From assembly GCA_963734525.1 (NCBI GenBank), contig CAVTHI010000008.1:216450-280449 (forward strand): a DNA stretch of 64,000 bases. The letters run 5' to 3'. The DNA comes from an uncultured archaeon. Lineage in GTDB: Archaea > Micrarchaeota > Micrarchaeia > Anstonellales > Bilamarchaeaceae. Under the pieces are notes generated by a model. That model had not been told where the DNA came from. It was given only the letters and a program-made list of their open reading frames with translations, and did not search any database. Of this stretch, positions 9,130 to 38,500 are shown one piece after another; the first letter of the stretch is position 1, and each line of letters starts with the position of its first letter. A program made the translations under genes and the position numbers.

Positions 9130-9198
9130 TTCAAATAAGCGAAACAGTATCGTTGGAAAGGATTTTTATATTATTCCGAGGCACTTCATCAGTCACAC

Positions 9199-9317: not shown

Positions 9318-9329
9318 TTTTCCATTAGT

Positions 9330-20566: not shown

Positions 20567-21807
20567 TGGGGAGGTTCAACACGCTGATGGCGGCAAGCTC
20601 CGCGCTGAGGATGTATCCCGCCACGTCGGGCGCGCTCGGACGGGAGCAGACGCAGAGGAGGAACACGATAACGCGCGAGGCGCAGGCAATCGCCGAAGCG
20701 GAAACTCCGCAGGCGCGCGCCGCGGCCGAGCGCCAGCTGACGACGACGCTTGCGACATACGTGTCGCGCGACATCACCGCGGTCGCAGGGGCGGTGCCCG
20801 GCGAGGCGAGGACCGCGCTCGATGCAATCGCCGCGCCGCTGGCGCAGCCAGGGACTGCGACGACCGCACAGGTCCAGGCCGGCATGCAGGCGCTTGCCGC
20901 GGTCGCCCGGCTCGGCGACGCGATATCGCCGTCGCACCGGATGGACCAGGACACGAGGAACGGCGTAATCGCGATTTACGCCCGGGCGCTCACGGCGCTT
21001 CCCCAGGCCGGGGGCATGGAAGCGTTCAACACGCAGATTGCGCTGGCGGGAAGGTATGCCGAAAGCCCAGCGCAACGGGCCGAGATTGCGCGCGTTTCGG
21101 AAAGGGCCGCTCAGGGCGGCGAGGGGCTCCAGCTCGCGCAGAGATACCTCGAGGCGGACAGGCAGGTGAACACGGTCCGCGAGCAGCGCAGGGGATTGCC
21201 CGCCGGAAGCGAGGCGGCAAGGGCGCTCGACATCATCGTCACGAACCTGGAAACGTACCGGACGAAAATCGCGGCCGGGCAGGACATCGCGACCGAACAG
21301 CAGATAACGGACTGGACCGCGAGAATCAGGCGGGACAAGGATACGGACCCGGCCATCGCTAGGCAGGTCGAACGCAGGAGGGCCGCCATATTGGCCGAGA
21401 ACCCCACGATGGATCCCGCGGCCGCCGAGGCCCAGGCGATATCGTCGATGGGACGCGAGATGGCGAATGCGTCCGAGCAGAGCAGGATAACAACGCTCCT
21501 CGAAGCGGGCGAACAGATGATGCGGGCGCTCCAGACGCCGCACCTGGCCGGCAGCCTCAAGAACGACCTGGGCAGGATTTTCAGGCTCGCCATCGACGCC
21601 ATCTCCCAGGGCAATGCGCAGGACGGGGCCACGTACAGGGACGCGGCCACGGCTTACCTGTCGCTGCGCGGAAGCCGCAACGCGAGGGACCGCGCGGACA
21701 TAATGCAGATTGTCCGCGCGAGCCGAACAAGCCACGCCTGCGGCGGGGCAGGGCAGGTTCACGGACGTGCAAATCCGCTCCCTCCAGGTTTACCGCCAGT
21801 TCGGTGA
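20521..21807 (+). CDS. Giant-locus segment 2 (helical)
   Basis: Only a GTG start. The frame is already open and reads sensibly upstream (…LREPASRIYSAALT|VLDTPPTAQENADAIMGRF). The tail …SHACGGAGQVHGRANPLPPGLPPVR looks out of frame. Confidence 0.65.
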   Translation: MLDTPPTAQENADAIMGRFNTLMAASSALRMYPATSGALGREQTQRRNTITREAQAIAEAETPQARAAAERQLTTTLATYVSRDITAVAGAVPGEARTALDAIAAPLAQPGTATTAQVQAGMQALAAVARLGDAISPSHRMDQDTRNGVIAIYARALTALPQAGGMEAFNTQIALAGRYAESPAQRAEIARVSERAAQGGEGLQLAQRYLEADRQVNTVREQRRGLPAGSEAARALDIIVTNLETYRTKIAAGQDIATEQQITDWTARIRRDKDTDPAIARQVERRRAAILAENPTMDPAAAEAQAISSMGREMANASEQSRITTLLEAGEQMMRALQTPHLAGSLKNDLGRIFRLAIDAISQGNAQDGATYRDAATAYLSLRGSRNARDRADIMQIVRASRTSHACGGAGQVHGRANPLPPGLPPVR

Positions 21808-23341
21808 ATATGAATCCAGGATTACGGACAGGGGGACGTTCAACAACGCGCGCGCATATTTCGATTTGGCGCTCATCGCCGCAAGGGGCAACGACCCGCG
21901 CCAGTTCCAGGCCATCCTCGACATGGCGAACCTTTACGCGGGGATGAGCACGATTCCGGAGAGCTCGATGACGCCCGACCTCCTTCGCCAGCGGAACGAG
22001 GCGAGGAGCTTCGTCACCGCCCAACTCGGGGATTACAGCGCCGACCGCAACATCAGGGGCGGGAAAAGGCTGCTCGACCTAAACAGCGAAGGCAGCCGCA
22101 CATGGCGGCTCGGGAGGGGCGTCGAGCTGAGGCCGATAGCCAGGGCGCTCGTTTCCACTAACGCCCCGGCAACTGCGGAACATCCGCACGAGACGATTGC
22201 AGGCGCGCTCGGCAACGGGAATGCCGCAGCGGGCCTGACCGCGTTCCAGCAGATAGCGGCGCAAACCAACACCCACATGCAGAGCATGGATGCGGTGCAG
22301 TTCGAGCAGAGGGCGCGCACCTTAGAGGGCGGGGACGAGGGCTCGAGGACCAGGACGCGCATGGACAGGCGCTACAGCCGCGAGGGCACCAGGCTCCGCA
22401 ACTCCGCAACAGCGGCCGAGAGGGCGGGCGATGCGGCGCTGGCAAGATACTACCGCGACCAGGCCGAGCTCGTGGACCCGCAGACATTGCGCGGCAATGT
22501 CGCGTCCGCAAGGGACATATACAGGCGCAGCACCGAGGAGAGGGCGCTTGCGACGAGGCTGTCCGCAGACGCGGTCAATGTGGCGACGCCGGATGCCGCC
22601 CGCGAGAGGCAGAGCGCGGAAGCGCTGATAGCCCTGCTACCCGAGGGGCAGAGGGCTGATTTCACAAGAAGGCTCACCGAAGCCGGCGACAATGCCGGAA
22701 GGGTGCGCGCAGTTTATACCGACGTGCTCGTAGCCCAGCTTCCCGAACGCGAAAGGACGCAGTTCACGCAGATGCGCCAGCAAGCCGGCCAGCTCGACCT
22801 CCCCAGGTCGAGGGCGGTGGCCACGCGGATGATAAGCATGCTGCCCGAGGGGATGCGGGCGGGATACACAGAGCGCCTCCGGGCGGCGGGTGAAAACCTC
22901 GAAACGACGCGAGGCATCGTGCAGGAAATCATGCACGTGCAGCTCGTGGGCGGCGAGGCCCAGCTCCACGCGGGGCGGAGCATGGACCTCCGCACGCAGG
23001 CGAATACCGTCCTCGAAGGCACATCGACGCTCGACCGCAGCGTCGGCCTCGATACGAGAAGGGCCGAGAGCGGAAGGCAGGAGCTGGTGGTCGGCATCAG
23101 GACGACGATAGCCATGGCAAGCGGCTATGCGACGGACCTGCTCGGCAACGTGCTCATGGAACCGCAGGGCGAGGGAGCCGCGCAGAGGCAGGTTCCGGTG
23201 AGGGCGCCCCCCGACGCGGTGCAGCTCCAGCGCGAGCAGGCGCGTCTCGCGCTCTCGAGCGGGACGACGGCTCGTCCAGGTCCAGGAGCAGACAAGAGCG
23301 ACGAGGGACCGCGGCCTTGCATCCGCAAGGACACTTGCTGA
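21710..23341 (+). CDS. Giant-locus segment 3 (helical; start of the LP-motif repeats)
   Basis: TTG is the only possible start, 6 nt after in-frame TAA 21701. Contains ALIALLPEGQRADFTRRL, LVAQLPERERTQFTQMR and MISMLPEGMRAGYTERL. Confidence 0.65.
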   Translation: MSARAEQATPAAGQGRFTDVQIRSLQVYRQFGEYESRITDRGTFNNARAYFDLALIAARGNDPRQFQAILDMANLYAGMSTIPESSMTPDLLRQRNEARSFVTAQLGDYSADRNIRGGKRLLDLNSEGSRTWRLGRGVELRPIARALVSTNAPATAEHPHETIAGALGNGNAAAGLTAFQQIAAQTNTHMQSMDAVQFEQRARTLEGGDEGSRTRTRMDRRYSREGTRLRNSATAAERAGDAALARYYRDQAELVDPQTLRGNVASARDIYRRSTEERALATRLSADAVNVATPDAARERQSAEALIALLPEGQRADFTRRLTEAGDNAGRVRAVYTDVLVAQLPERERTQFTQMRQQAGQLDLPRSRAVATRMISMLPEGMRAGYTERLRAAGENLETTRGIVQEIMHVQLVGGEAQLHAGRSMDLRTQANTVLEGTSTLDRSVGLDTRRAESGRQELVVGIRTTIAMASGYATDLLGNVLMEPQGEGAAQRQVPVRAPPDAVQLQREQARLALSSGTTARPGPGADKSDEGPRPCIRKDTC

Positions 23342-24700
23342 GGGACAACAACATCACGCAGGCGACAGCCCTTATAAACCGCATGATAGACCTGCTTCCC
23401 GAGGGCAGGAAGGCGGAGTTCAGGTCGAGGATTGCCGCCGCCAATCAAAGGAATGAAGGCGAATCGGAAAGCGCGTTCCGGCTCAGGCAAAATGGCATCC
23501 TCCAATCAACGTATGCGGAACTGGGCAATCTCACAGGCACGCGGACGACGAACGAGCAGGGCAACTTGATTTATGATACGGTCGGAAATTATGCGGATTA
23601 TCGTGTCGTTTCGGGGATGTTCTGGTCCGAGCGGTTCGATGCCGCAGGCTCTGCGATGAACGGCGCTGCCGCAACCATCGGCATCCAGTCGAATCGCGCC
23701 GGCATGTGGGTCACGAACCGCGTATTCGCGATTCAAAGGGAGGCGGCCGCTGAACGGACAGGCTTCCCTCCGGGGATGAATGCTATTGCTTCTGCGCTGT
23801 TATCGCCAGAAGGATTGGGGCTGGCCGGCGGAAGGACAGTGACCCCCCCGACTGACGCGACGCTCAATGAGATAATAAGCCACCTTCCGGCGGATAAGCG
23901 CGCCGATTACCAGGCGCGGCTTGCCAGGATAAGGGAGGCGGAGGGCCGCGCGGGAGCCGCAAGGCCCGGCACCCCAGATGCCATCACAAGGGACATTTTC
24001 ATGGAGGGCGGAGGCAGGCAGGGCCTCCTCGAATCCCTTGCGAGCGAACGGATTAGGACGCCGGCTGGAAGGGACGTGAACCTGCTCACAACCATCGCCA
24101 GCCGCAGCCCCCTATACTTCGATGCGGAAGGATATGACAGGAGGTTCGTCTCGGCGCAGGCGGCCGTGGACAGGGGCAATGTCGCCGAAGGGAACAGGAT
24201 TCTTCTCGGGCTGACCGGCGGGCGCCAGCGCGACGGGACCGAGGTCGTCGGTGACATCGAAATCGGCCAGGGAATGGAATCGAGCGATATCAGGCGCTTC
24301 ACGCTTAGGGCCTCGGCATGGACCCAGGAGAGGGCCAGGTCCGGCGTCCGCGGGGAATTCATGGAGGGCGCGCCGCCAGGCACGGAAGAGACGCGCGCAA
24401 GGCAGATGAGGGAGGACCGGAATCTGGCAATCGTCCCGGTTCTCGAAGCCCTGGAAGGCAGCATGGGAAGAAGCGTTTCCGAGCTGAATGCGGCGGCGAC
24501 TGCGAACGAGAGGGCGAGGGACGAAATCGGAACGACAAGGACTGTGCTGAGGGTCAACGATTCACTCGTAGCAAACCTCTGGGCCATGCTTCCGAGGGAT
24601 GCCGCCTCCAGGTACGACGCCCGCATTGACGAGATGAACGCGGGGGGGACGTCTCCGACAAGGCGCAATGAAATCGCGCGCGAGCTTTACGCCGAGATGC
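22618..24700 (+). repeat. Six dispersed copies of a helical 'LP' motif (hh..hLPxxxRAx[YF]xxRh) spanning the segment 3/4 junction
   Basis: Copies near 22621, 22727, 22828, 23381, 23868 and 24569. Examples: MIDLLPEGRKAEFRSRI, IISHLPADKRADYQARL, LWAMLPRDAASRYDARI. Confidence 0.6.
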
Positions 24701-27700
24701 GCACGCATCCGGAGGAGTTCCGGCAGGCGAGGGAAGACCTGCTAACTCACAGCGGCACATATTTCACCCCATACCGGGCCCAGCTCGAGGCGGATGGAGA
24801 GACTACGTATGCCGAAGGCAGGCACCAGCAGCGCAGCGTCGGCTGGACGTATGCGAGGCTGCAGTTAACGTCGATGCAGGACGATTTGAGGATGGGTGAC
24901 CAGGCCCAGACCTACAGGGAGGGGAGAAGCGCCCAGACACAGCACGCAAGGGACGCTCTCGACCGGGCGAAAGGAAGGCCGGGCAGGATGTACCTCATCT
25001 CGGACGCGCACAGGGAACACGCGGCGAGGAGGGCCGAGGCCGCGCTTGCCATGCTCCATGAGGACAACGACTACCGCGCGCAGGACATACTCCGCAGCAA
25101 CGAGACATTGACCGCGCCAGTATACGAGTTCCACGGCCCGAGCCGCGACTGGAATTATGCGCGGGTGGGGACGGATGTCAACATCTACAGCGATAGGAGC
25201 GGCAGCGGAAGGCGCATCGGAGGCCGCCAGATAAACCCGATTGACGAGATGGACACGCTCAACCGCGCCGAGAACATGGAGCTCACGAGCTATACCGACA
25301 GCGACCTGTTCTATGATTCCAGGGCGCGCGTCCGGCCGCAATTTGAAACGATAGGCCGGAACCAGACGGACCTGCAGCTTGGGCTCCTCGGGTTCCGCAG
25401 GGTCCCTCTTCTCAACGATCCTGACGGATACACCCACCGCATCGTATCATGGACGCCTGCATCCGAAGCGGAGTACGCGAGGGTTAATGACGCCTACACG
25501 CAGTTCATGCGCCTTCGCGGGCAGATGCAGTCATCGGTTTTCCAGCACGATTCGCCATGGGGCGACGACCCGCAACTCCGGTTCCTTGAGCGGACCGCAG
25601 AGCGCACTTCGAACGCGGCTTTGTCGGTATACGAACTCCAGCCATACCGAATGGATGAAAGGCCCACCGGCACGAACGCTGAAAGGCTGGCGGCATCCCA
25701 AAGCAGGCTGAGGGACAGCGGATTGTTCGTCCAGGAGGGGAACCAATATGTCGACAGGGATTTTGCGACAAGGGATGCGCTATCTAGCATGACGAACTAC
25801 CGCAGCGGCTACAACGTCGTCTGCGGAGTCGGCGAGTTCGCGGTCGCAACCGCAGGCGTCGTCTTCGCGCCGGTCACCGGAGGGGCGTCCCTCGCACTCA
25901 CGGTCGGCGTCGGCGCAATGGGCGTGCACCGCGGATTAGTCATGAGGGAGCAGGCCGGCGAGTGGACCGGCATGGCGACGTTCACTACGGTCATGGGCGG
26001 AATCGGGATGGTCCTGCCTGTTGCCGGCGAACTCGCAGGAGGGGGCAGGCTGCTTGCAGGCGGCGCTGAGCTGGCAAGCGAACTCTCTGCAGGAAGCAGG
26101 ATTGGAACCGCGGCGACGGAAACCGCAGTCGCATTGACAAGGAGCCAGAGGGCCCTCCAGTGGGCTGTGGGCGTCGGCAACGAGGCGAACTGGGCGCAGA
26201 GATATGTCGGGCGCACTGTGCTCGGCGCGTATGAATTGAACCTGGCACAGCGCGGCGTGCACGTGATGGGAACCGGCATGATGGCCGGCGGCTTCGCTCA
26301 GTTCGGCTACCAGCTCCCGCAGATGATAGAGGGCGTGCGCCGTGGCGACATGGCCTGGTTCGAGGCGGCCTTCGGCGGCTTCCAGGCGATCGTCCAGCCC
26401 ATGGCGCAGGCGGGCTTCGTGCAGTTCCGCGTGGGGCAGGCGGCAAGGGGAGGCGGCATTCCAGCTTACAGGCCCGCGTGGCAGCAGGGAGTCGAGGCGG
26501 TTTTCCTCGGCCACCCGCTGACGCTGGGGCAGGAGCACGCGCAGTCTCTTGCTTATCACAACGCGCGGATAGAATTCAATGCCCTCCCGCAGACGGTGAG
26601 GGAATCTTACGTTTCATTCAGGGACAGCACGGGAATACGGCTGCCGCCGGACGTCGAGGTTCGCGTCCTGCGGGAGTACCGCGCGGCGAACGAGCAGGGG
26701 ACCGCGAGGAACTTCCAGGAATTCGCGTCAGGTTCCAGGGATGTGCAGGTCGCGCGGCTCGAAGCGGTCCGCGACGCGATTGTCGAGGGGAGGGTGAGGC
26801 TGTCCGAACTGCCCCGCGACCAGCAGGAATATATCCGGACGAGGCAGGCCGGCGGCAGCGAAGCCGCCGCGCTGACCGCCCGCGACCTGGCCATCGCAGA
26901 ATCCAGGGCGCCTGCGCCAAGGACGCCTGAGACGGTCGCGGAGCAGAGCAGGGCGACCCTTGAGCGGCTCGACCGCGCCGCGGAGATGCGCGACCGGAGG
27001 GACGCCGCGGCCGCCGCAGTCCAGCTGAGGCAGGAGAGGACGGATTTGAGCGGCTCGTTCGATGCGGCTTTCACCGGGAGGAGCTCGGACGGGACGACGA
27101 CCACTTACACGCTCGGCAGGGGCGAATCCGCAATCACGTTCGGGGAGCAGCACGTCTCGCTCGCGACCGACCTCGCATTCAACGCGCAGAGGATTGTGCG
27201 GAGGCCGGAAGGCCAGACGATGGAGCGCGCGGCCGCTGAAGCGCGGACGAGAATCCGCGCCCAGCTTGAGCCGGAGGTCCGCGCGAACAGGATGAGCGTG
27301 GCTGACGCCGAGCGGATTACCGGCGAAAGGATGAGCCGCGTCGAGCAGATGGCCCGCGACCCGGAGTTCGTCCGCGCCACGCCGCGCGACGGGGCGGCGA
27401 ACAGGGGCGAACAGCTGCGCCTCGGGCTCGAGAGCGCGGGATTCCTGCCAGAAATCGCTCCAGGCCGGATGTCATCAGGGCGAGGAACTCGGTCGAAGTC
27501 CTCAGGATTCTTAACAGCAGGGAGCTCACGCCGAACGACCTTGAGGTTTTCGCTTTCAGGAGGCAGCAGCAGTCCGAGGAAGCGGAGACGAGCGCGCTGG
27601 GCATGGAGACTCGCGCCGCAAGGTTGCGCGAGAGCAACCCCCAATCGCGCGAGGCTACAGCGCTCGACGCGAGCGCGCAGAGGCTCCGCGCGGAAGCGGC

Positions 27701-28182
27701 GGGGCTGGAAAACAGCGCGAACACGTTACTATCTGAGGCTGCGGGAAGAAGGACCGTTGCCAGGGCCGGGGAGCTCAGGACGAGGGCTGAGCGCCTCGAA
27801 TACCGCGCCCTGCTCGACCAAGGCCAGGCAGAGGCGCTCCGCGGAAGGGCCGCGGGATTGCGCGCGGAAGCCGAGAGGATGTCGCCGCAGCCCGCGAGGC
27901 GGGAAGGCAGGATGTCGGCGCGCGCTCCGGACGTTCCGGAGGTGCTTGCGAATGTCAGCCCCGAAAGGTATGCGGCATCGGCGCTCAGGAACAGGGCGCT
28001 TGACCTGGAGCAGGCGGCAGCGGCGAACGAGGCGCGCGCTTCGAGGATGGGCCCCGAGGACAGGCAGGCTACGGCAGGGATTGCCGCCGGTTTCCGCGAG
28101 GCCGCAAGGGCCATGCGCACGCAGGCGGAGCAGTTCGAATCCGGAAGCGTCACGGTCACACCCGAAGGAGTCCAGGCGCTGA
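23317..28182 (+). CDS. Giant-locus segment 4: LP-motif repeats, globular region, Gly-zipper hydrophobic core. Genuine coding in this frame probably ends ~27460
   Basis: TTG start only. Sensible sequence runs to …LGLESAGFLPEIAPG, followed by ~240 codons of Arg/Ser/Gly junk. Hydrophobic GVGEFAVATAGVVFAPVTGGASLALTVGVGAMGV / TTVMGGIGMVLPVAGELAGGG at 25806-26070. Confidence 0.7.
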   Translation: MHPQGHLLRDNNITQATALINRMIDLLPEGRKAEFRSRIAAANQRNEGESESAFRLRQNGILQSTYAELGNLTGTRTTNEQGNLIYDTVGNYADYRVVSGMFWSERFDAAGSAMNGAAATIGIQSNRAGMWVTNRVFAIQREAAAERTGFPPGMNAIASALLSPEGLGLAGGRTVTPPTDATLNEIISHLPADKRADYQARLARIREAEGRAGAARPGTPDAITRDIFMEGGGRQGLLESLASERIRTPAGRDVNLLTTIASRSPLYFDAEGYDRRFVSAQAAVDRGNVAEGNRILLGLTGGRQRDGTEVVGDIEIGQGMESSDIRRFTLRASAWTQERARSGVRGEFMEGAPPGTEETRARQMREDRNLAIVPVLEALEGSMGRSVSELNAAATANERARDEIGTTRTVLRVNDSLVANLWAMLPRDAASRYDARIDEMNAGGTSPTRRNEIARELYAEMRTHPEEFRQAREDLLTHSGTYFTPYRAQLEADGETTYAEGRHQQRSVGWTYARLQLTSMQDDLRMGDQAQTYREGRSAQTQHARDALDRAKGRPGRMYLISDAHREHAARRAEAALAMLHEDNDYRAQDILRSNETLTAPVYEFHGPSRDWNYARVGTDVNIYSDRSGSGRRIGGRQINPIDEMDTLNRAENMELTSYTDSDLFYDSRARVRPQFETIGRNQTDLQLGLLGFRRVPLLNDPDGYTHRIVSWTPASEAEYARVNDAYTQFMRLRGQMQSSVFQHDSPWGDDPQLRFLERTAERTSNAALSVYELQPYRMDERPTGTNAERLAASQSRLRDSGLFVQEGNQYVDRDFATRDALSSMTNYRSGYNVVCGVGEFAVATAGVVFAPVTGGASLALTVGVGAMGVHRGLVMREQAGEWTGMATFTTVMGGIGMVLPVAGELAGGGRLLAGGAELASELSAGSRIGTAATETAVALTRSQRALQWAVGVGNEANWAQRYVGRTVLGAYELNLAQRGVHVMGTGMMAGGFAQFGYQLPQMIEGVRRGDMAWFEAAFGGFQAIVQPMAQAGFVQFRVGQAARGGGIPAYRPAWQQGVEAVFLGHPLTLGQEHAQSLAYHNARIEFNALPQTVRESYVSFRDSTGIRLPPDVEVRVLREYRAANEQGTARNFQEFASGSRDVQVARLEAVRDAIVEGRVRLSELPRDQQEYIRTRQAGGSEAAALTARDLAIAESRAPAPRTPETVAEQSRATLERLDRAAEMRDRRDAAAAAVQLRQERTDLSGSFDAAFTGRSSDGTTTTYTLGRGESAITFGEQHVSLATDLAFNAQRIVRRPEGQTMERAAAEARTRIRAQLEPEVRANRMSVADAERITGERMSRVEQMARDPEFVRATPRDGAANRGEQLRLGLESAGFLPEIAPGRMSSGRGTRSKSSGFLTAGSSRRTTLRFSLSGGSSSPRKRRRARWAWRLAPQGCARATPNRARLQRSTRARRGSARKRRGWKTARTRYYLRLREEGPLPGPGSSGRGLSASNTAPCSTKARQRRSAEGPRDCARKPRGCRRSPRGGKAGCRRALRTFRRCLRMSAPKGMRHRRSGTGRLTWSRRQRRTRRALRGWAPRTGRLRQGLPPVSARPQGPCARRRSSSNPEASRSHPKESRR

Positions 28183-31100
28183 GAAGCAGGGCCGGCGAAT
28201 TGCGCGCCGAGGCGCAGCAGCTGCGCACGCGGAGGGATGCGGACATCCAGCGCGCCGCCGCCCTTGAGCGCAGCGGAAGGGGCGAGGAGGCCCAGGCAAT
28301 CAGGAGGGGCGCGGCGAGAACCGGGGCTGAAATCTCATCCCGCGAAAACGAAGCCGTGTTCCTCACGCGCGAAGCGTCGAACCTGGAAACGATACTCAGG
28401 GCGAGAAGCGGCGAGGCCACAAGGCCCGCCGCGGCGCCATCGCGCAGGACGCGCGCGGCCGAGGGCGTGGACGAATCTTCGCCGGCGAGATTCATCTCCG
28501 ACGATGCGATAGGGACGAGGATAATAGAGCGCGCCCTCGCCCCGAGGGACAACCCGTCCCAGCAGCAGGAGTGGTTCGTAGGCGGCGAGCGCATGACGGT
28601 AGGAAACAACACCGAGGTCGTGACTACCCGCAGGGTGCTTCAGACCGTCGACACGTGGGTGCGCGGCATGGCGCGCGCTGGACAGGAAAGCGACATCATC
28701 GTGCTGAGCGGCGACAAGCGCCTGCTGAACAACATCAACAACGCGCTCGGGCGCCCAATCGGGGACCGGGCCCTATCCGCCTACCGCGAGGTCCTGCGCC
28801 GCGCGGTGAACGGGGCCGCGGGCGAAGGAACGCCGTTCCTGCTCCGCCCGTCGCAGAGCGGGGATGAAGTGCTTGCGGTCATAGTGGTTCCGAGAGGCCG
28901 CGGACAGGCGGTGCGCGAGGCGCTCGCCGCGGGAGTCAGGAGGGCCGAGGCGGACGTGCTCCAGGAAAGGCTGAATCCGGAGCATCCTGAAAGCCTCGCC
29001 GCCGCATCGAGGATGGTTAGGGACCCGAGAGGCCTCGTTTCCGCCGCTGTTGAGATTGGCGATGTCGTCCAGGTGCGGAGGGGCCAAGGCGGGGAGGTCA
29101 CTGCCACCGGCGTGCGCCAGGATGGAAGCACTTACAACGCGGAGGTCGCGAGGACCGACGCGCAGGGAAGGGAGACGCGCGAAATCGCCGGCCCGGCGCT
29201 CAGCCGCGCCGACGACCCGAGATGGGGGCCGGACCTCAGAAGGAGGCTCGGCGTTCGGGAGCAGATGGACATCACGCTCGGCCTCGAGCCGCTGGAAACC
29301 GCGCGCGTAAGGGACGCGCTGTCAAGGCAGCGGAGCGGCCAGGTGCTAAGGCCCGAGGAGCAACGCGTCGTCGCGGAAGTCCAAAGGCGCGTCGGGGAGG
29401 GCGCATCCGAGGATGCCGCCGTGTTCGCTACGGCCCAGGCGCGGGCGACCGTGTCCCCGACGGAAAGGGTGAGCGGACTCACATTCGAAGTAAGGCTCGA
29501 GGTCACGGACCCGGCCACGCTCGCGCGGATGCGTGCGCTCCTGCCCGAAAGCAACAAGGGGCTGGCCGAACTCGCATCGAACAGGTTCGGCATCAGGGGC
29601 CTCAACACATTCCTCGGCCACCAGGGCTCGAACGGGATAGTGACGTCAGTCGAGCACGCCGTCGGCGATTTCGCATCGTCGCCCTATGCGAGGCAGCGGG
29701 GAATCCGCGTGCGGCGCCTGGGCACCATGAAGTATATAATAGAAGGGGGCAACGCGGCCGACATGCGCATGATGCGCAGGATGATAGACCGCCAGCTCAG
29801 CTCGGACCACGCGCAGATGCGCATGAGCAGGACGACGCACCACGCCCAGCTTACGGACGTGACCGGCGAAACTGCCCTCGCCCACGCGCAGAACGGGCAT
29901 CTTTCGGTAGACCGGAGGCAGGACCCGTCGCGCAGGACGGACTGGGACGGGGAAACCAGGCTCTATGAGATGGCCAACTCGATTCTCTCGAACATATCAG
30001 TCCGCGACGAGGCGTCGCTTGCGAGGATGCTCGGGCCCGAGGGCTACAGGCTTCTCCGCGACAGCGGAGTCCTCGACATGGTACGGGGCAATGCGGAGGC
30101 GGGATTCGGAAGATACGCGAACGGCCCGATAAGGAATTTCGAGGATTTCGTCCGCGCCCTGCGCCAGGAAGTCGGCGGGGAGCGCGGAAGGACTATGGAG
30201 AGCGCGTTCAGGAGGTTCATCATCGAGAACGAGCCGGTGCTGAGCCGTAGGTTCGCGACCGAGAGGACGGAATTGTCCGCACCCGAAGTCTCTGGCCGCA
30301 TTGCGACCAGGAGGCAGGAAATCGGCCGGGTTTATGAAAGGCGCACGGGAACGCTCACCCCGTCCGAACAGCAGACCGTGACGAGGGTCGACGAGCTCGT
30401 CCGCACGCGCGGGATGACCGCCGAGCGGGCGATGGATTATGTCGCAGACGAGCAGGTGAGGCCGCACGCAGTCAACGCCGATGCGACGCATATCGAAGGG
30501 GAGCAGCGCACCTTCACCGCGATGGCGCCCGAATTCCAGGACACGCGCGTCGTGCAGGGGGACGGGAGCACGGTCAGGCTCGGGGACGCGCCGAGGGGAA
30601 GGCTGATAGGCCGCCTCGACGACACGTTCGAGACGTCAGGCTCTTCCGCAGGCGTTTTCCGCGGCGAGGTGCTGGTGAACGGACAGCCGGCCGAAGTGGC
30701 GATTAAATTATACAGGGATCCGCCCGGTGCGACGCACGACCAGCCGGCCACGCCCGCGAGATGGAGGCGGATGATAAGGTATGCGCAGGAAGAGGTGAAT
30801 TCCCTGCGCACGCTTTCTGAAATCAGGGTGAACCTGCCCGACGAGCACGGCGTCATGCGCGAGGTCCCGCTCGGACCGGCGGTGATAGGGTTCGTGCAGG
30901 TCGACGGCAACCCCGCGATAGCGATGGAGCGCGTGCAAGGCCGCGCGATCGACGAATTGACGCCGAGCGAGATAAGGAGGTTCGTCACGCCGAGGACCTA
31001 CGAGCAGCTGCGCACCATGTGGGATGCATTGCACCGCGCGGGATACGACATCGGCGATTTCCAGTTCGCGGTCCTCACGTCCGACCAGCGCGTCAACGGC

Positions 31101-34100
31101 GTGCAGAGAAGGGCCGGCGAGATAGTGTTCTGGGATGCCGGCGGCCTGGCGCCGCTCGCGAGGAACATGAGTCCGAAATCCGCGGATTACCAGGTGAACT
31201 TCCATGAGAGGGTCGCCGAGGCAATCCTGATATCCGATTATATGTGGCGCGAGGGACCTGACGGCGAGCAAATTCCGCGGAGGCCGCAGGCGGAGTTCAC
31301 TGCGCTTGACACGGCGCTCCGCGGCGCTCTTGGCGTGCCGGCAGACCGCCAGGTGACGACTGCCGACCTCCTCACCCAGTTCCGCGATATGGGCCAGAGC
31401 GGACCGCAGGGAACGGATGTGGGATTCTCGGCCGCGCAGCGCAGGCAGGCGGTGGCGGATTATCTTTCGCGCATGCCGGACCGCGCAGAAGCGGCGAGGC
31501 TCGAAACTACGCTCAGGGATATCGAGGCGGGTTCGGGAATGGCATTCCTTCCGCCGAGGGCGGAAGCCGCGGCCGCGCAGAGGCGCGCCGCGACAGCGGG
31601 AGCGCCGGCGGAGAGGGGGGATACGACCACGCCGATGCCGCCCCGCGAGCCGACGCAGCCCCCGCGCGAGCCATCACAAAGGCCGCGCGAACCGTCGCAG
31701 AGGCCGCGCGAGCCTTCGCAACAGCAGCGCGAGCCCACTCCGGAAGAAAGGGCCGACACCGAGCCGTCGCCGCCGCAGGCGAGGCCGCCTTCGAGGCCCA
31801 ATGAGTCCGCCCAGCTGCGCCCTGTTGAAGATGTGACGGGAGTGCCGAGGCAGGCGTTCGACGACATCCGCGCAGGCATGGCCATTCCGGACATCATCGA
31901 CAGGCTTTCGCAGGGCAACGCTACCGCGGCGAGAAGGCTTGAGAATGCCGTCGGGCCAATGCTTAGGGACCCGGTATTCAGCGAAAGATTCAGGCTCGCC
32001 TCGGATACTGAGAAAGCGATGATTGTCGAATCGCTGGCAAGGGGAAGGGCGCCAGCGGATGCATTCATGGATTTGGGCGCACTGACCGCACCCAGGACCG
32101 CGCAGGAATTCGAATCGCTCACGGCGAGGCTCGCGGCGCTTCCGGCCCAGGAGAGAAACCTGCGGCTCACCGAAATCAGGGCGGCGAACTCCCTGCTTGC
32201 GGACGCGGTCGGAATCGCCGCCGCAGAACCGTCGCCGCAAAGGAGGGCCCGCCTCGCGACCGAGTTCGAGACAGCGATGGGAGAGCGCGGGCGCATCGCC
32301 GAAGTCGAACGGGCAAGGGGCGCGCGCACGCCCGCCGAGCTCCGGGACCAGGAGGAAGCGCTGATACGCCGCACGGCAACGGACAGGGGATTGGATGCCG
32401 AGGCGGCCGTCAGGAATTACGGGGCCGGAGGGACGGAAGGCAGGCTCAATGCCATAGCGGGCCTGGGCGCCGATGTGACGCGCGTCCGCGCGCAGTTCCA
32501 GCGCGAGCAGGACAGGATAGGGCGCATGGCCGACGGACCTGCGAAGGACCATGCCCAGCAGCGCCTGGACCGGGCCGGGGAGGATTTGTTCGCGCTTTAC
32601 ACGAGAGGGAACCTCCAGGGCAGCATAAGCGGCCTTCCGGGTTTCGAGGGGGCGACGGTCGCCAGCATATCATTCCTTCCGGGGATGAGGGGCGTCTATG
32701 AGGTCCGCATGTCGAACAACCGGCGCGTCTTCATAAAGATGGAGGACGTTTCGGCCGCGGGCTTGGGCCGCGATTTGGCGGCTACGCGCGGATTGTACAC
32801 TTCCGAAATCCATGGCGGGTTCTCTTACGAGACAGGGCTCAGTTACCGCAACGGGACGCCGGTCCGGCAGGAGTACGGAATCATCGAGGACATCCATGAT
32901 GCGGCCGGCCGCAACATCCGCATCCGGCTCCCGTCAGGGCCTGCCGAGGATGTCCGCGTGGTGGGCGTCTCGATGCTGAGGCACGAGGTGCTCGAGGTCC
33001 CGCGGCCGCCGGCCGCAGGTGCATCGCCTGCGGAAGTGCAGGCGTACCAGCAGCGCCTCGCGAGGTTCACGTCCGACCCGGTCATCCGGGAATTCTACAG
33101 GCTTTCCGGGACGCCGCAGGGGCGCGAGACGCTCATGCAGGCGTGGAACGCATACCATGAATTGTCGAGGCGCTCGCTTCTCGGGGACAGGTACGCGCGC
33201 AACACCGCGGCAGTCCTCGTCGAGAGGGCGAACGGCGAGCGCGTCCTCACGTTCCAGCCGATAGACATGGATGCCGTGGGGTGGAGGGTATTGTCCAATC
33301 CGGATGGCACGCCCAATTTCATGTTCTTCAACAGGGACTTCGCGGACGCCAGCACGGATTTCGTCCAGAGGGCGTCGAGCGCGAGCCTGGCCGCTGAAAG
33401 CATCGGCCTCCTTCCCGCAGGGGTTCCGGCATATGCATTTGGCGACGCGATGTTCAGCCAGCGCGCGCAGAGGCCGCTTCCCCCGGAGATACCTCCGCAA
33501 AGGCAGGCAGGGCGCGACATCATCGCCCGCCATGACGGCCAGCCTTTCGGCGCAGGCTATGACACGACAAGCGGCGAGTACAGCCCGGTCGGAGGCACTG
33601 CCGTCCACGGTGGAAGGACGAGGTTCATCGAGCGGGCCGACGGGCGCATGAGGATGTACGCGGACGAGATGAACCCGCTGATGGAAGCCAACCTTTCGCC
33701 GCAGGCGAGGGCGGACTACGCGCGCGAGCAGCAGGAACGCATGCGCAGCGTGCGGAGAAGGCCTGGCGGAGGAGGTGGAGGCCCGCCGCCGCTTCCGGCG
33801 GCAAGACAGTCGTCAGGCCCGGTCGTCGAGATTACGGACGGGCAGATAATACGCGAGCCTTCGGCCCCGGCACCGAGGCCGAGCGGAAGAGCGCCGTCGC
33901 AGCGTCCTGAGCGGACGATGGAGGTTTCCGATTCCGATATAGTCCATGACGCTCCGGCGGTTCCGCCGGAGCAGCCCCCAGCTCCTTCGCAAAGGCGCGG
34001 CCCGCCTCCGCTTCCGACGCAGCGCGATGCGACGATGAATGTTTCCGATTCAGAATTGATTATCGAACCGCCGGCGGCACCGGCAAGGCGCGGGCCGCCT

Positions 34101-35528
34101 CCGCTCCCTCCCGCCGAGCCGGCCCAGGCGCCGTCGCGCAGGGGACCCCCGCCTCTCCCGCCAGAGCAGGCGCAGCAGCCGCGGCGCGGGCCGCCGCCGC
34201 TTCCAGCCAGAGGGGAGCGCACACAGCCGCTTACAGAGGCGGACATGATTCCGGTCCAGCCCCCAGGGCGCACGCCTCCGCCCCCGCCACCATCGGCGCA
34301 GGCAAGGAGGGCGCCCGCAGGGCCGCAGCCCCAGGTGAATCCCGTCGACCTCGTCCAGCCGGCTAACCTTGCAACGTTCGCCAACAGGCTCGCGGCCAAC
34401 GATGCCGCGGCGGTGCGCGACCTGGCAGCCATGCCGCCGCAGGTGCGCGACACGGTAAACGCCCTCATGCTGAGGATGGGCGGAGCGCCGAGAAGCCCCC
34501 AGGAGCAGGCGACGCTCGCCCGCGAATTCTCCGGAAGGGTGCTTGCGACGCGGCTGATTGCGGACCCGGAAACGCTGTGGAGGTTCGCCTCCACCTTCAG
34601 GTTCGGCGAGACCGCATCGGGCGTCACGCCCGAACAGACCGCCATGCTCAATTCGCTCCCCCCCTCCGTCCGCGGGACCGTGCTTGAATTCGCCGGGAGG
34701 CTGAGGAACGAATGGAGCGCGAGGGATGCGCTCGAACCCGGATACACCGAAAGGATAACCAGGCAGATAGATGTCGAAACCGTGCGGGACTTGTACGTCT
34801 CGCACAGGGCAGGAACCAGAATCACCGACCCGGCCGACCGCATGGCTGTCGAGTATGTCACCGCAGGCGGGAGGACTCCCGACCCCGCGACGCGCGAAGG
34901 CGCAAGGCTGATTGAGGCCGCCGCGGTCATGCGCAACGCCGCGAGGAGGCTTGTGGAAGCATCGGGCGGGTCTGCGGACGCGCTCGCAGCGGCGCGGGTA
35001 AATGCCGAAACCGTCAGGACAGGCCAGAGGCCGAATGATTTCAACAGGGCTTTGGCATACGACTTCATCAATGATTTGGCGCAGGCCAGCGCGGCTGCCG
35101 CCGGACGCGGAGTGCCCACAGCAGAGGATTACCTGTATGCAACAGTGACGCATGCATATTTCACGAGGGCCGGGAGCGCCGACACGGCGAGAATCTCCGG
35201 CACCCATTATTTCCCCGGAAGCGACGCAATCGAACAGCATGTCACCGCGACGCTGGAATGGGGCGGGCAGAGTTTCAATATCCGGATTTTCCGGGACAGG
35301 GTGAATTTCGGGGATGTGGAACCGGCGAGGGCAGTCGGCGAGCCGAGCTGGCCGTCATGGCAGATGAGGGACGCGTTCCTGAGATACGCACAGCGCACGC
35401 TGCGCGGGCCCGCTCGAAGAGGCGGTGCGCCCGGTCATGCGCGCGATACCGAGGGAAGCGGGGCAGGATGCCAGGGCGTGGGCCGCCGCGACGCGCGCGA
35501 ATCCGACCGGCGACATCCAGATACCTAG
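27603..35528 (+). CDS. Giant-locus segment 5 (2641 codons): coiled coil, two GGDEF-like modules, ePK-like fold, PI3K/PI4K-like module, Pro-rich arrays
   Basis: The frame is open and sensible upstream of ATG 27603 from ~27460 (RPDVIRARNSVEVLRILNSRELTPNDLEVFAFRRQQQ…). The tail after …AFLRYAQRTLRG looks out of frame. Motifs are listed under findings. Confidence 0.75.
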   Translation: METRAARLRESNPQSREATALDASAQRLRAEAAGLENSANTLLSEAAGRRTVARAGELRTRAERLEYRALLDQGQAEALRGRAAGLRAEAERMSPQPARREGRMSARAPDVPEVLANVSPERYAASALRNRALDLEQAAAANEARASRMGPEDRQATAGIAAGFREAARAMRTQAEQFESGSVTVTPEGVQALRSRAGELRAEAQQLRTRRDADIQRAAALERSGRGEEAQAIRRGAARTGAEISSRENEAVFLTREASNLETILRARSGEATRPAAAPSRRTRAAEGVDESSPARFISDDAIGTRIIERALAPRDNPSQQQEWFVGGERMTVGNNTEVVTTRRVLQTVDTWVRGMARAGQESDIIVLSGDKRLLNNINNALGRPIGDRALSAYREVLRRAVNGAAGEGTPFLLRPSQSGDEVLAVIVVPRGRGQAVREALAAGVRRAEADVLQERLNPEHPESLAAASRMVRDPRGLVSAAVEIGDVVQVRRGQGGEVTATGVRQDGSTYNAEVARTDAQGRETREIAGPALSRADDPRWGPDLRRRLGVREQMDITLGLEPLETARVRDALSRQRSGQVLRPEEQRVVAEVQRRVGEGASEDAAVFATAQARATVSPTERVSGLTFEVRLEVTDPATLARMRALLPESNKGLAELASNRFGIRGLNTFLGHQGSNGIVTSVEHAVGDFASSPYARQRGIRVRRLGTMKYIIEGGNAADMRMMRRMIDRQLSSDHAQMRMSRTTHHAQLTDVTGETALAHAQNGHLSVDRRQDPSRRTDWDGETRLYEMANSILSNISVRDEASLARMLGPEGYRLLRDSGVLDMVRGNAEAGFGRYANGPIRNFEDFVRALRQEVGGERGRTMESAFRRFIIENEPVLSRRFATERTELSAPEVSGRIATRRQEIGRVYERRTGTLTPSEQQTVTRVDELVRTRGMTAERAMDYVADEQVRPHAVNADATHIEGEQRTFTAMAPEFQDTRVVQGDGSTVRLGDAPRGRLIGRLDDTFETSGSSAGVFRGEVLVNGQPAEVAIKLYRDPPGATHDQPATPARWRRMIRYAQEEVNSLRTLSEIRVNLPDEHGVMREVPLGPAVIGFVQVDGNPAIAMERVQGRAIDELTPSEIRRFVTPRTYEQLRTMWDALHRAGYDIGDFQFAVLTSDQRVNGVQRRAGEIVFWDAGGLAPLARNMSPKSADYQVNFHERVAEAILISDYMWREGPDGEQIPRRPQAEFTALDTALRGALGVPADRQVTTADLLTQFRDMGQSGPQGTDVGFSAAQRRQAVADYLSRMPDRAEAARLETTLRDIEAGSGMAFLPPRAEAAAAQRRAATAGAPAERGDTTTPMPPREPTQPPREPSQRPREPSQRPREPSQQQREPTPEERADTEPSPPQARPPSRPNESAQLRPVEDVTGVPRQAFDDIRAGMAIPDIIDRLSQGNATAARRLENAVGPMLRDPVFSERFRLASDTEKAMIVESLARGRAPADAFMDLGALTAPRTAQEFESLTARLAALPAQERNLRLTEIRAANSLLADAVGIAAAEPSPQRRARLATEFETAMGERGRIAEVERARGARTPAELRDQEEALIRRTATDRGLDAEAAVRNYGAGGTEGRLNAIAGLGADVTRVRAQFQREQDRIGRMADGPAKDHAQQRLDRAGEDLFALYTRGNLQGSISGLPGFEGATVASISFLPGMRGVYEVRMSNNRRVFIKMEDVSAAGLGRDLAATRGLYTSEIHGGFSYETGLSYRNGTPVRQEYGIIEDIHDAAGRNIRIRLPSGPAEDVRVVGVSMLRHEVLEVPRPPAAGASPAEVQAYQQRLARFTSDPVIREFYRLSGTPQGRETLMQAWNAYHELSRRSLLGDRYARNTAAVLVERANGERVLTFQPIDMDAVGWRVLSNPDGTPNFMFFNRDFADASTDFVQRASSASLAAESIGLLPAGVPAYAFGDAMFSQRAQRPLPPEIPPQRQAGRDIIARHDGQPFGAGYDTTSGEYSPVGGTAVHGGRTRFIERADGRMRMYADEMNPLMEANLSPQARADYAREQQERMRSVRRRPGGGGGGPPPLPAARQSSGPVVEITDGQIIREPSAPAPRPSGRAPSQRPERTMEVSDSDIVHDAPAVPPEQPPAPSQRRGPPPLPTQRDATMNVSDSELIIEPPAAPARRGPPPLPPAEPAQAPSRRGPPPLPPEQAQQPRRGPPPLPARGERTQPLTEADMIPVQPPGRTPPPPPPSAQARRAPAGPQPQVNPVDLVQPANLATFANRLAANDAAAVRDLAAMPPQVRDTVNALMLRMGGAPRSPQEQATLAREFSGRVLATRLIADPETLWRFASTFRFGETASGVTPEQTAMLNSLPPSVRGTVLEFAGRLRNEWSARDALEPGYTERITRQIDVETVRDLYVSHRAGTRITDPADRMAVEYVTAGGRTPDPATREGARLIEAAAVMRNAARRLVEASGGSADALAAARVNAETVRTGQRPNDFNRALAYDFINDLAQASAAAAGRGVPTAEDYLYATVTHAYFTRAGSADTARISGTHYFPGSDAIEQHVTATLEWGGQSFNIRIFRDRVNFGDVEPARAVGEPSWPSWQMRDAFLRYAQRTLRGPARRGGAPGHARDTEGSGAGCQGVGRRDARESDRRHPDT
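31641..31742 (+). repeat. Tandem 7-aa/21-nt repeat PREPSQR (about 4.5 copies)
   Basis: PREPTQP PREPSQR PREPSQR PREPSQQQ REPTP, read directly from the sequence. Confidence 0.85.
33766..34335 (+). repeat. Proline-rich array: 5x GPPPLP cores (4 as RRGPPPLP) interleaved with acidic [VI](S/T)D(S/G)[DE/Q][IL][IV] motifs, ending in PPPPPP
   Basis: GGGGGPPPLP…VVEITDGQIIREP…MEVSDSDIVHDAP…QRRGPPPLP…MNVSDSELIIEPP…ARRGPPPLP…SRRGPPPLP…PRRGPPPLP…LTEADMIPVQPPGRTPPPPPPS. Confidence 0.85.
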
Positions 35529-38500
35529 GACGAGGCCAGGCCGCGCTCCCCCGGCGCAGACATCGATGACGCCTGAGGAGGTCGTCAGGGTTCATCTTAC
35601 CGCAGATACGGGCGGAAGGGCGGATGCTGCAGCCGCCCTGATGCGCATGCCCCCGCGCGACCGTGCACGGACCGTCGAATTGCTCCGTGAAAGGGCGCGC
35701 CCGCTTGAGGAACGCGCAGGAGCGATGGAGGCCGAGGCGAGGAGGCTTGAGGCACAGACCGCGCCGCAGGAAACGAACATCGTCCAGAGGCAGCAGGGCG
35801 CCGAGGCCGAAGCTACAAGGCTCTTCGAAGAGGGTCGCCAGCTCAGCACCCAGGCGCAGGCGGCCGAGGCGCGCGGGGATGCTCCCGAAGCCGCCCGGTT
35901 ACGGACCGAGCAGAACCGCATTGAAACGCAGGCTTACGAGAGGGATGCCGAAGGCAGGCGCCTCGCCATCGAGCTTAGCCGCGTCCGGGAGCCTGCCAAC
36001 AACCTGCGAAACGACGCAGCCGGACTGAGGACCCAGGCGCAATACTGGAACGAGCATGCGATGTTCTACCGCGAGCTGGGAAGCCTCAGCGGCGATGCGG
36101 GCACGAACATTTCCACGATGTTCATGATTCCGAGGGAAGAGCTTGCATCGATATACGCCCGTGCGCCCACATTATCCGAAGCGAGGCAGGCGATTTATGA
36201 CCGCCTCGGAATACGGCTCGGGGACCTTCCCCCGCTCGAAGTCAGGAGCGACGCGTATAAGAGCTTCAACTCGCTTGCGGACGACCCGTACATAGCGGGC
36301 ATGATGCTCACCGGGGACCTTTTCCGCAACATCGAGCAGATGGTGAGGCCGGACATGCTCGGCCTCCAGCCGGGCGACCGCGTGGTCGTGAGGGGCATAA
36401 GCTTCCAGAACGGCCTGGTCGGCGCATACCGCATCAGGCTCGAAGTCGTGGACAGCACGGGAAACCCGAGGACATTCACGGACCGGGGCGGGAATTCCAG
36501 GGACAGCATGACCGTCTTCGCGAAGAGGCAGGACCTGCGTCCCGATGCGGTCGGCTCGGAAGGAGGCTCGCTCACCGGGGCGCCATCGCCGCAGATTCGC
36601 GTGACCGGGCCGAACGGAAACCTTTCATACGTATCGCCCGAAGGGCATACAATCAACTACGGCATCATGCGCGACATACATGATTTCAGCGGGGAAGTGG
36701 CCGCGGGCGGGCACCGCCTGCAGGTCACGGTCGACGCCGCGGAAGACCTGTACAGCCTCGTGTTCAGGCAGGAGGGTGCGCGCGATGCTGGAAGGCAGCA
36801 ATTGTTCGCCGAACTGCGGGACAACCCGGACCAGTTCATCGAGGCGCTCGGCTATGCGCAGACCGGATTCGCCGCGGCCGGGTTCTATGACAGGCACGAG
36901 GCGAACGTCTGGGCGATGTGGCTCCGGATAGGTAACCAGCCGCCCGCGGAAGCCGCGCGCATGGCGCAAAGCCTCCGCGGCCAGGGCTACCGCGTCCGGG
37001 ACAACGGTGACGGCTCGTTCAGCTTCCTGCGCTTCGGCGCGATTGATTCGGATACGTTCGGTTCCTACCGCGCGACGGTCCGCGAGGACGACAGCATCTC
37101 GCTGCGCCCGATGGCCAACCAGTTGACGACGGACATGCACCGCGTTTTCGTTCATTTGACATATGAGATGAATACCGCGGAAATGACATTGGCGGCCTCG
37201 CAAGGAAGAAGGCCGCGCCTCCTCACAGTCGAGCAGGTCATTGAAAGGTCGTTCGGCGCGAACATGGACGGGCCGTGGATACGGGGCATGCGCAGATGGG
37301 CCACCGAGTTCAGCCCGACCACGGAGCAGGGCAGGAGATTCAATGATTCGATGAGGGGCCTGCTGAGCAACTACCACGGCCAGCGCAGCGGCATGGGATT
37401 CGCGATGGAAGGGGCCCAGCTCGGGAGGTTCGAGAGCGACGGCTACGTGCCGGTCCCCTCGGCCCTCAACGGCTCGCCGGTCACAATCGTGGACGGCATG
37501 GACGGAAGGGCGAGCTTCCTCGCTACCGGCAGGATTGCCACGAACCCGACAATCGGGGAATCCGCAAACAGGCGCATCATCGCGGCTATACCCGAAGGGC
37601 AGGACAGGTTCCTTATCAGGACTGATGATTTGCACAGGACGCAGCGGACTGCGCTGCGCGGCGCCCTCGGCTCTGCGGCAACAGAGTTCAGGACCGCAGG
37701 CGTCGGGGGGAGAACCTATCTCGTCATAAGCGACCCGGCGGCGATACCGCAGCAATACCTTGACAGGACGATATCGGTCAACAGGACCGGCGATGTCCTC
37801 TACTCGTACAACTATGGCTCCTTCATGACAATGTTCCCGGAGGGCAGGAGAATGTTTATGCTCCGCGTCGACAACCTGCCCCGGTCGGATGCCCGGGCGG
37901 CCGGCAGGATTCGCGGGGCACAGCCGCTTGAGCTCGGGATAACAGGCGAAAGAAGATATGTGATCGTAGAGAATCCGGACAGCATCCCGCAGGCCCTCAG
38001 GGACCGTGCCGTCGAAGTCGTGAGGCACGAAAACCGCCTGATGGGAGCCGAAGGGATGGCAACCAACATCGGGATACTGCATACGAGGACCATCGGCGCG
38101 GTCAGGATGTTCGACCACGTGATGGGCATGGGCGACGCCGGCTGGAGGAGCCTCTGGCAGGGCGTCCGCGACGGCTTGATGACTGCAGAGGGGAACGAGC
38201 GCGCCGCCGGCGGGCAGGACTTCCTCATGAGGAGGGTTCCCCAGCCGAATGTGCGGCAGGCGCTCCCGCCGGAGTATGGCGGCCCGGCAAGGACCGCGCC
38301 GCTTCCGCCTGATGCGAACCCGCCGGGCGGCGCGCCGCCCGTGGCGCCTCCGCCAGTTCCACCGCAGGCGGCACCTTCGCGGGGACCGGACGGAACGATA
38401 AGGGGAGTCACTCCGCCAGCGGATGCGCAGGCGCAAAGGCCGCCGTCCCAGCCGCCACCGCCGCCGGTTCCGCGGCAGTCTGCACCGCCTGAAGCGGTGC

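Follow-up and report, generated by a model that had tools for sequence, protein, structure and literature searches.

The 64,000-nucleotide stretch of DNA analyzed here (hereafter the window) comes from an uncultured archaeon of the family Bilamarchaeaceae, phylum Micrarchaeota (GenBank assembly GCA_963734525.1, contig CAVTHI010000008.1, forward-strand positions 216,450 to 280,449). It contains a giant gene that is broken, in this copy, by single-base insertions and deletions (indels), and whose product includes a conserved unit of two palm domains that we call the tandem-palm cassette. This cassette is best explained as a lineage-specific unit of Micrarchaeota/DPANN archaea, both palms being derived from the GGDEF/nucleotidyl-cyclase fold. 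The features concerned are as follows.

19409..41360, plus strand: giant gene of about 7,317 codons, split into seven reading-frame pieces by single-base indels.
28545..29900, plus strand: tandem-palm cassette of about 450 residues, conserved (42 homologues, AlphaFold2 model).
28620..29084, plus strand: module 1, a GGDEF-like palm domain with the order alpha-beta1-alpha-alpha-beta2-beta3-alpha-beta4 (Pfam, PDB profile, hhalign, Foldseek).
29085..29444, plus strand: beta-rich insert and three-helix linker between the palm modules (secondary structure of the AlphaFold model).
29445..29888, plus strand: module 2, a degenerate palm-like domain (AlphaFold model of the module alone, Foldseek, hhalign).
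39900..41360, plus strand: C-terminal module of the giant protein, with an H..HD motif; in the related metagenome contig L020 it continues the giant open reading frame (ORF) without a shift.

Cassette residues are numbered from nucleotide 28545 (residue 1). A small N-terminal beta sheet precedes module 1, and the beta-rich insert and helical linker, which are missing or shorter in homologues that stand alone, lead from there to module 2. Both modules had been proposed in a sequence-only reading of the window, and the two peptides that it quoted are encoded on the plus strand in the frame of ORF 27603-35528: TTRRVLQ...GVRRAE (module 1) at 28623-28949 and NRFGIRGL...YIIEGGN (module 2) at 29580-29753. 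Each peptide lies inside the range assigned to it there, but the start coordinate given, 28606, does not belong to this frame, and translating 28606-29800 directly therefore yields the product of a different one.

An exhaustive phmmer search over 1.84 billion representative sequences recovered 42 homologues of the cassette, of which 40 were aligned; this alignment, with a mean column identity of about 24%, is the basis of all column counts and conservation figures below. Word-indexed searches found no homologue when queried with the 467-amino-acid region, and P0032 alone when queried with the family alignment. Modules 1 and 2 co-occur at fixed spacing in nearly all 42 homologues, forming a cassette of 360-470 residues whose position varies within host proteins of 1,000-7,300 residues; other copies make up stand-alone proteins 512-574 residues long. 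No internal paralogues of the cassette were detected within the window by tblastn. The stand-alone homologues (P0027-P0042; also L001, positions 8001-9581) share a helical C-terminal extension of about 150 residues that is absent from the giant proteins and carries the motifs vLD..DF, iRDtEDlvw.lR, and WlfeFa. A nuclease reading of these C-termini was dropped: the two weak PADLOC matches (E 0.013 and 0.033) gained no backing from the alignment and look like noise.

The taxonomic distribution of the cassette is narrow. Among species-representative genomes, a search with a 14-sequence alignment of module 2 located it at 14 loci in 12 different metagenome-assembled genomes, all labeled Micrarchaeota or unclassified archaeal and including one Ca. 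Bilamarchaeum (class Micrarchaeia) and one labeled "Candidatus ainarchaeum sp."; some cassette-bearing genomes hold two copies. One stand-alone copy adjoins an archaeal ribosomal-protein operon, and one homologue, from a Micrarchaeota archaeon, is annotated merely as a "proline-rich domain-containing protein." A mobile-element or viral origin was considered and set aside, no relative having been found on viral contigs, as was membership in a defense system, PADLOC giving no match to the cassette. Neither NCBIfam nor PADLOC has a model for it. A single-sequence PDB search with the cassette region returned a spurious Rab match and nothing else; AlphaFold2, run on the 40-sequence alignment, gave a confident model of the cassette as a single body (predicted local distance difference test [pLDDT] 95.0; predicted template-modeling score [pTM] 0.89).

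Module 1 is strongly supported as a remote homologue of the GGDEF domain, though not as a typical member of that family, and four independent methods agree on both the family and the residue register. The Pfam model PF00990 matches module 1 of the window with an E-value of 0.007 (16.6 bits, profile positions 24-72). It is matched individually, if weakly, by 15 of the 40 cassette sequences (best E 9.9e-5), and no other Pfam family is matched by more than one of them. Searched against the PDB, the family profile yielded eight weak matches (E 0.16-0.6); the best seven are diguanylate cyclases or GGDEF proteins, and the eighth and lowest-ranked is an immunity protein. Starting at the first helix, these alignments continue through "DK…LN.IN…G…GD" to "SDE" on "GDEF," pairing DK with D[KL] and SDE with GDE. 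For hhalign we used a GGDEF reference alignment composed of Escherichia coli DgcF, DgcZ, DgcJ, DgcP, DgcN, and DosC (NC_000913.3) and a T. maritima fragment, to which the module 1 family profile aligned over 74 columns with Prob 91.5% and P 8.6e-7; the reversed GGDEF alignment and an unrelated alignment, serving as controls, gave P 0.37 and 0.23.

The structural comparison points to the same family. Diguanylate cyclases head the Foldseek matches of the cassette model in the PDB (5llw, 6et7, 4zvf, 6ttr, and 7e6g; probability 0.99-1.0), with 18-22% identity over about 150 columns and template-modeling (TM) scores, normalized to the target, of 0.34-0.46. Lower in the ranking are class III cyclases, Cas10, Pol I, and reverse-transcriptase palms, and in the viral library a Pandoravirus guanylate cyclase and a phage AdrA diguanylate cyclase come out on top. 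The motif-by-motif likeness to diguanylate cyclases described in the sequence-only reading is thus borne out by both profile and AlphaFold/Foldseek searches. A chance resemblance to GGDEF motifs, with no homology behind it, is effectively refuted: no search crosses its threshold when taken singly (Pfam 16.6 bits, PDB profile E 0.16-0.6, Foldseek E 3e-3), but a chance likeness leaves unexplained why four methods should settle on one family in one register, why the hhalign controls are 5-6 orders of magnitude worse, and why 15 of 40 divergent homologues match the same Pfam model.

The residues expected of a catalytic palm are retained in module 1. In both HMMER and hhalign alignments, D57 (28713-28715), at the end of strand beta-1, falls on the leading Asp of the DxD motif, and D107-E108 (28863-28868), in the beta2-beta3 hairpin, fall on positions three and four of GG[D/E]EF. 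D57, the adjoining K58 (D57-K58, 28713-28718), D107, and E108 are present in all 40 sequences; R101 (28845-28847), ahead of the hairpin, is found in 37 and N65 (28737-28739) in 38, whereas D74 (28764-28766) is Asp in 32, Asn in seven, and Thr in one. N65 (of "IND") and D74 (of "GD") correspond to the positions known to contact guanine in PleD/WspR-type cyclases. The signature itself reads S-G-D107-E108-V (28857-28871), this SGDEV aligning with GG[DE]EF. In the family, the residue before D107 is Ser (26 sequences) or Gly (14), the one further upstream is variable, and E108 is followed by Val, Thr, Gly, or Ala, never by Phe. In addition, "LN" stands in for "FK," and an RxxD inhibitory site (I-site) is not present in the module. 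The substitution of SGDEV for GG(D/E)EF, with retention of both metal-binding acids, had been read correctly from the single sequence.

Purifying selection on module 1 is strong. Between the window and L020, the ratio of nonsynonymous to synonymous substitution rates (dN/dS) is 0.148 over 2,609 codons, 0.10 in the cassette, and 0.025 in the module 1 core (28623-28949), the most constrained of the stretches for which this comparison was made. To judge from its conserved residues, module 1 most probably functions as a Mg2+-dependent nucleotidyltransferase. Its likely substrate is guanosine triphosphate (GTP), because the guanine-contact Asn and Asp, the metal-binding acids, and the Arg before the hairpin are all kept.

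Several observations weigh against reading the cassette as a GGDEF-type enzyme at work in this organism. PF00990 scores fall short of the gathering cut-off of 23.8 bits (16.6 bits for the module, 13.6 for the cassette), and the Foldseek E-values are modest (best 3e-3, none at or below 0.001). The two glycines and the Phe of the GGDEF signature are unconserved in the module 1 family, and the hairpin that carries this signature exceeds that of GGDEF domains by two residues. The C-terminal half of the module departs from the canonical domain, as seen in the restriction of the hhalign match to 74 columns and in the low Foldseek TM scores, with root-mean-square deviations (rmsd) of 5-6 Å. The window's copy of the giant gene is frameshifted, and neither a receptor nor a hydrolase that would act on a nucleotide product has come to light. 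We therefore file module 1, on account of its score and the loss of the GG..F signature, as a lineage-specific variant of the GGDEF-type palm and not as a member of PF00990.

Some of these points would also suit a pseudoenzyme, in which both palms are non-catalytic and the cassette either senses nucleotides by binding them or gives structural support within the giant protein. Degenerate GGDEF domains do act as receptors in some bacteria, and the missing GG..F signature, the Pfam score under the cut-off, the diverged C-terminal half, and the lack of any sensor domain, receptor, or phosphodiesterase recognizable nearby (with Pfam, NCBIfam, and PADLOC, and among neighboring ORFs) are what such a protein might display. 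Receptor-type degenerate domains normally lose their metal ligands, however, whereas D57, D107, and E108 are invariant in sequences as divergent as these, and the lowest dN/dS in the protein falls on module 1. We consider a pseudoenzyme unlikely, and retain the reading of module 1 as a probably active palm.

Module 2 presents a different picture. Modeled alone by AlphaFold (pLDDT 94.2), it matches the GGDEF domains of WspR, DgcB, and GcbC in Foldseek with a probability of about 0.9 and TM scores of 0.40-0.44 over about 150 columns, and further matches include herpesvirus primase, Abi-P2, DRT, retron, and group II reverse transcriptases; the E-values are weak (0.03-0.1). With hhalign it aligns to the GGDEF reference at P 6.6e-4 (controls 0.05-0.56), in a register that places GIRGLNTFLGHxGxN (family pattern GiRGlNTf.Gh.gaN) on FKxINDxxGHxxGD and the LGTMKY hairpin (29718-29735) on that of GGEEF. 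In this register the metal-binding Asp is replaced by Asn in 28 of the 40 sequences and by Gly in ten, the Asp of "GD" by Asn (N363) in 33, and the acidic positions of the hairpin by Thr, His, or Tyr and by Leu or Met. With non-acidic residues at the catalytic positions, module 2 would be unable to bind metal in the GGDEF fashion. The description of this module in the sequence-only reading, as a retained fold with a degenerate LGTMKY signature, agrees with these results.

Other positions in module 2 are nevertheless held constant, among them K338 (29556-29558), E342, N346, and the FGIRGLNTFLGH motif with N354 (29604-29606), together with the LGTMKY hairpin. K338 and N354 are invariant and E315, E342, G358, and Y397 nearly so; since these invariant residues are the module's own, it is taken to be under selection for some role. 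That module 2 is a catalytically dead, palm-like fold of the GGDEF type is moderately supported. Compared with each other by hhalign, modules 1 and 2 do not align significantly (P 0.06, 16 columns), so an internal duplication is not demonstrable from sequence alone.

The breadth of the module 2 matches raises the alternative that the cassette is a polymerase- or primase-like palm, either a template-independent or protein-primed polymerase in the manner of AbiK, Abi-P2, and DRT or a protein nucleotidyl-transferase, forming one module of a giant effector. Taken by itself, module 2 fits GGDEF domains roughly no better than it fits herpesvirus primase, Abi-P2, DRT4/6, and the reverse transcriptases of retrons and group II introns, its profile shows a weak similarity to the YADD hairpin of a maturase reverse transcriptase, and the whole cassette also matches Pol I and Cas10 palms. 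Those matches are low in probability or TM score, however, and fall on the module that lacks catalytic acids, while module 1 is specifically GGDEF in Pfam, the PDB profile, hhalign, and Foldseek and keeps the guanine-contact Asn and Asp of diguanylate cyclases; nor are fingers or thumb subdomains recognized. A polymerase of this kind seems to us decidedly improbable, and a GGDEF-type origin remains our reading of both palms.

The integrity of the giant gene bears on whether the cassette is made in this organism at all. Relative to L020, which is about 90% identical to the window in DNA sequence over 19372-39985, the window carries single-base indels near 20390, 20473, 21721, 23268-23337, 27459, 35412, and 39894. 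L020 itself is a single, stop-free open frame of 6,822 codons that extends past both ends of the contig. A second relative, the 7,279-residue protein P0001 from another assembly (79% identity over the region), is colinear with the window from 19409 and follows its frames in the order 2, 3, 1, 2, 1, 3, 1. At the junction equivalent to the indel near 39894, L020 continues in frame (…PGGAMGMRGGDAPRAM…), and because it runs unbroken across this last junction we place the giant gene at about 19409-41360, or some 7,317 codons. The intact relatives have 6,800 to 7,300 codons. The idea of an archaeal giant protein is upheld by these relatives and by the archaeal character of the flanking genes (archaeal RecJ, family-I ProRS, archaeal LonB, and RtcA), with the correction that it is not one ORF in the window.

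It may be that the gene is a pseudogene in this genome, so that the modules are not produced here, whatever the family does elsewhere. About seven indels separate the window from both L020 and P0001 without compensation, at least one of them (at 27459) lies outside a homopolymer, and the tested flanking genes (RecJ, ProRS, LonB, and RtcA) appear full length. On the other side, the seven pieces contain no in-frame stop in a total of about 7,300 codons, the low dN/dS against L020 extends from the gene as a whole to module 1, and several of the indels fall in short G/C runs, as consensus errors would in a gene of 66% G+C. We regard a pseudogene as a minority possibility, though one to be taken seriously. 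The stop-free pieces and low dN/dS lead us to lean toward assembly indels or a very recent inactivation, in preference to an old pseudogene, as the probable origin of the frameshifts.

The segment at 39900-41360 forms a separate ORF in the window because of the 1-nucleotide deletion near 39894. The sequence-only reading took it for an HD-domain protein encoded at the end of an operon; L020 places it instead as the C-terminal module of the same giant protein. Its motifs are YHxxQHTxNV, ILHDAD, and SEYADKSSWYF, and the H39/H43 ... H89-D90 ... D92 pattern is invariant across four homologues of the module. Searches with Pfam (E up to 10), NCBIfam, phmmer against the PDB, and a four-sequence profile against the PDB gave no support for an HD domain, so the assignment stands on the H..HD motif. 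No HD protein was found among the neighboring ORFs at 42-48 kb. The association of this module with the cassette is real: the same module recurs in three other giant proteins, lying downstream of the cassette in P0003 and upstream in P0016 and P0012, where about 200 residues separate its end from the cassette.

On balance we think it fairly probable that the cassette is a GGDEF-derived active palm (module 1) paired with a dead palm (module 2) and that it joins nucleotides. Module 1 would bind GTP-Mg2+ and transfer a nucleotidyl group. Module 2, fixed against module 1, would probably supply the second half of the nucleotide site, either for an acceptor or for an allosteric ligand, by analogy with GGDEF dimers, class III C1-C2 cyclases, and Cas10. 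The predicted product would be a linear or cyclic di- or oligonucleotide. A wider proposal, which we regard as doubtful, is that giant proteins of Micrarchaeota, and possibly of DPANN archaea more widely, contain a working nucleotide synthase of GGDEF descent, maybe with an HD-like hydrolase module, as the first lineage-wide archaeal di- or oligonucleotide system. Were this so, the product might be used in the symbiont's own signaling or be delivered to manipulate the host.

Outside the cassette the giant protein offers few landmarks. In the window's pieces and in three other giant homologues, Pfam recognized no domain apart from the sub-threshold GGDEF match in module 1. The gene has a G+C content of 66.0%, compared with 59.5% in each flank, and its coding strand shows a strong purine bias (A>T, G>C). 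The protein contains many coiled-coil-like Ala/Arg/Glu segments as well as proline-rich repeats: a 21-nucleotide tandem repeat at 31637-31735 codes for four or five PREP(S/T)QR units, and a (R)RGPPPLP motif that recalls profilin- or SH3-binding tracts occurs five times at 33780-34210. Its sole strongly hydrophobic stretch, at about 25813-25935 (NVVCGVGEFAVATAGVVFAPVTGGASLALTVGV), is rich in Gly, Ala, and Val and could comprise one or two membrane-spanning or glycine-zipper segments; no signal-like segment was seen at the N-terminus. Downstream of the cassette, at about 30650-31300, "VAIKLYRD" resembles the VAIK strand of protein kinases, but a kinase reading of this region was discarded when phmmer against the PDB yielded no kinase.

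The end of the giant gene is overlapped by ORF 41197-41964, whose true start is probably further downstream; its last approximately 50 residues (about 41728-41883) match the HicA toxin family at E 6.8e-6, just under the cut-off (26.5 versus 27 bits). Scans of the window for tRNAs and Rfam families gave no matches.

GGDEF-type cyclases have been regarded as an essentially bacterial feature, as the sequence-only reading also held. A 2018 census listed one archaeal GGDEF domain, in Methanocella, and an inactivated REC-GGDEF protein in Ca. Micrarchaeum, and queried contamination (PMC5847659); according to a 2023 review, cyclic diguanylate (c-di-GMP) is undetected in archaea and diguanylate cyclases are almost exclusively bacterial (PMC10249747). 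A full-text literature search found no paper describing the tandem-palm cassette. What is new here is a conserved family with intact predicted catalytic residues and under strong purifying selection, found in no fewer than 12 species-level genomes of Micrarchaeota or unclassified archaea and missed by the curated models of Pfam, NCBIfam, and PADLOC. GGDEF-type chemistry may therefore exist in DPANN archaea in a form overlooked by domain censuses. The cassette, the first enzymatic module that can be recognized in these obligate symbionts' 7,000-residue proteins, which otherwise defy annotation, is at about 450 residues an expressible target with which to ask whether archaea produce nucleotide messengers of the GGDEF type.

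In its overall form, the giant protein invites comparison with those of nanohaloarchaea and other DPANN archaea ("SPEARE"), which are described as surface- or secretion-related, with Ig-like and VirB4-like domains (PMC10266531). Like them, it is a protein of several thousand residues from an ultra-small symbiotic archaeon, with length and module order varying between related genomes; unlike them, it shows no sign of a signal peptide, and neither Ig-like nor VirB4 domains were recognized in it.

The proposed pairing of an active with a degenerate palm has several parallels. Class III tandem C1-C2 cyclases, such as mammalian adenylyl cyclase and soluble adenylyl cyclase, likewise combine in one chain a palm with metal ligands and a degenerate palm, and class III cyclases are among the Foldseek matches of the cassette (4cm0, 6r4p, 1wc6, and 1ab8). 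The sequence signal of the cassette favors GGDEF, however, and although matches to 4cm0, 6r4p, and 4ust cover 430-445 columns, their TM scores of 0.15-0.22 and rmsd of 16-20 Å mean that the structures are not superimposable. Cas10/Cmr2 of type III CRISPR systems, also archaeal and multi-domain, makes oligonucleotide messengers with a pair of palms of which one is active and the other inactive, and it has an HD domain; the giant protein, too, holds a module with an H..HD motif, for which profile searches gave no support as an HD domain. The sequence-only reading named Cas10 palms as the archaeal relatives of GGDEF-type cyclases, but Cas10 is not close to the cassette: the Foldseek probability is about 0.3 (0.28-0.30; 4doz and 9arw), and the cassette lacks the GGDD motif, a CRISPR context, and any PADLOC match. 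Given the poor whole-cassette superpositions (TM 0.15-0.22), the arrangement is not simply that of soluble adenylyl cyclase or Cas10. In composite bacterial GGDEF-EAL proteins, a degenerate GGDEF domain serves as a nucleotide sensor beside an active domain. The cassette similarly keeps a dead GGDEF-type domain next to one predicted to be active, but here the partner is another GGDEF-type palm instead of an EAL domain, and the guanine-contact Asp of module 2 has been lost (N363, in 33 of 40).

The closest counterparts, and the best match to module 1 by every method used, are the GGDEF diguanylate cyclases (PF00990; PleD, WspR, DosC, and DgcZ). Common to both are the palm fold with its beta1-alpha-alpha-beta2-beta3-alpha topology, the metal-binding Asp of beta-1, the acidic pair of the hairpin, the Arg ahead of it, and the guanine-contact Asn and Asp. 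Module 1 differs in its [S/G]-D-E-[V/T/G/A] signature, in the invariant Lys that immediately follows the catalytic Asp (DK), and in having "LN" for "FK." It is also without the RxxD I-site and without a REC, PAS, or GAF sensor; its C-terminal half is remodeled with a beta-rich insert, a dead palm is always fused to it as a partner, and the family is limited to Micrarchaeota, where its host proteins reach 7,300 residues.

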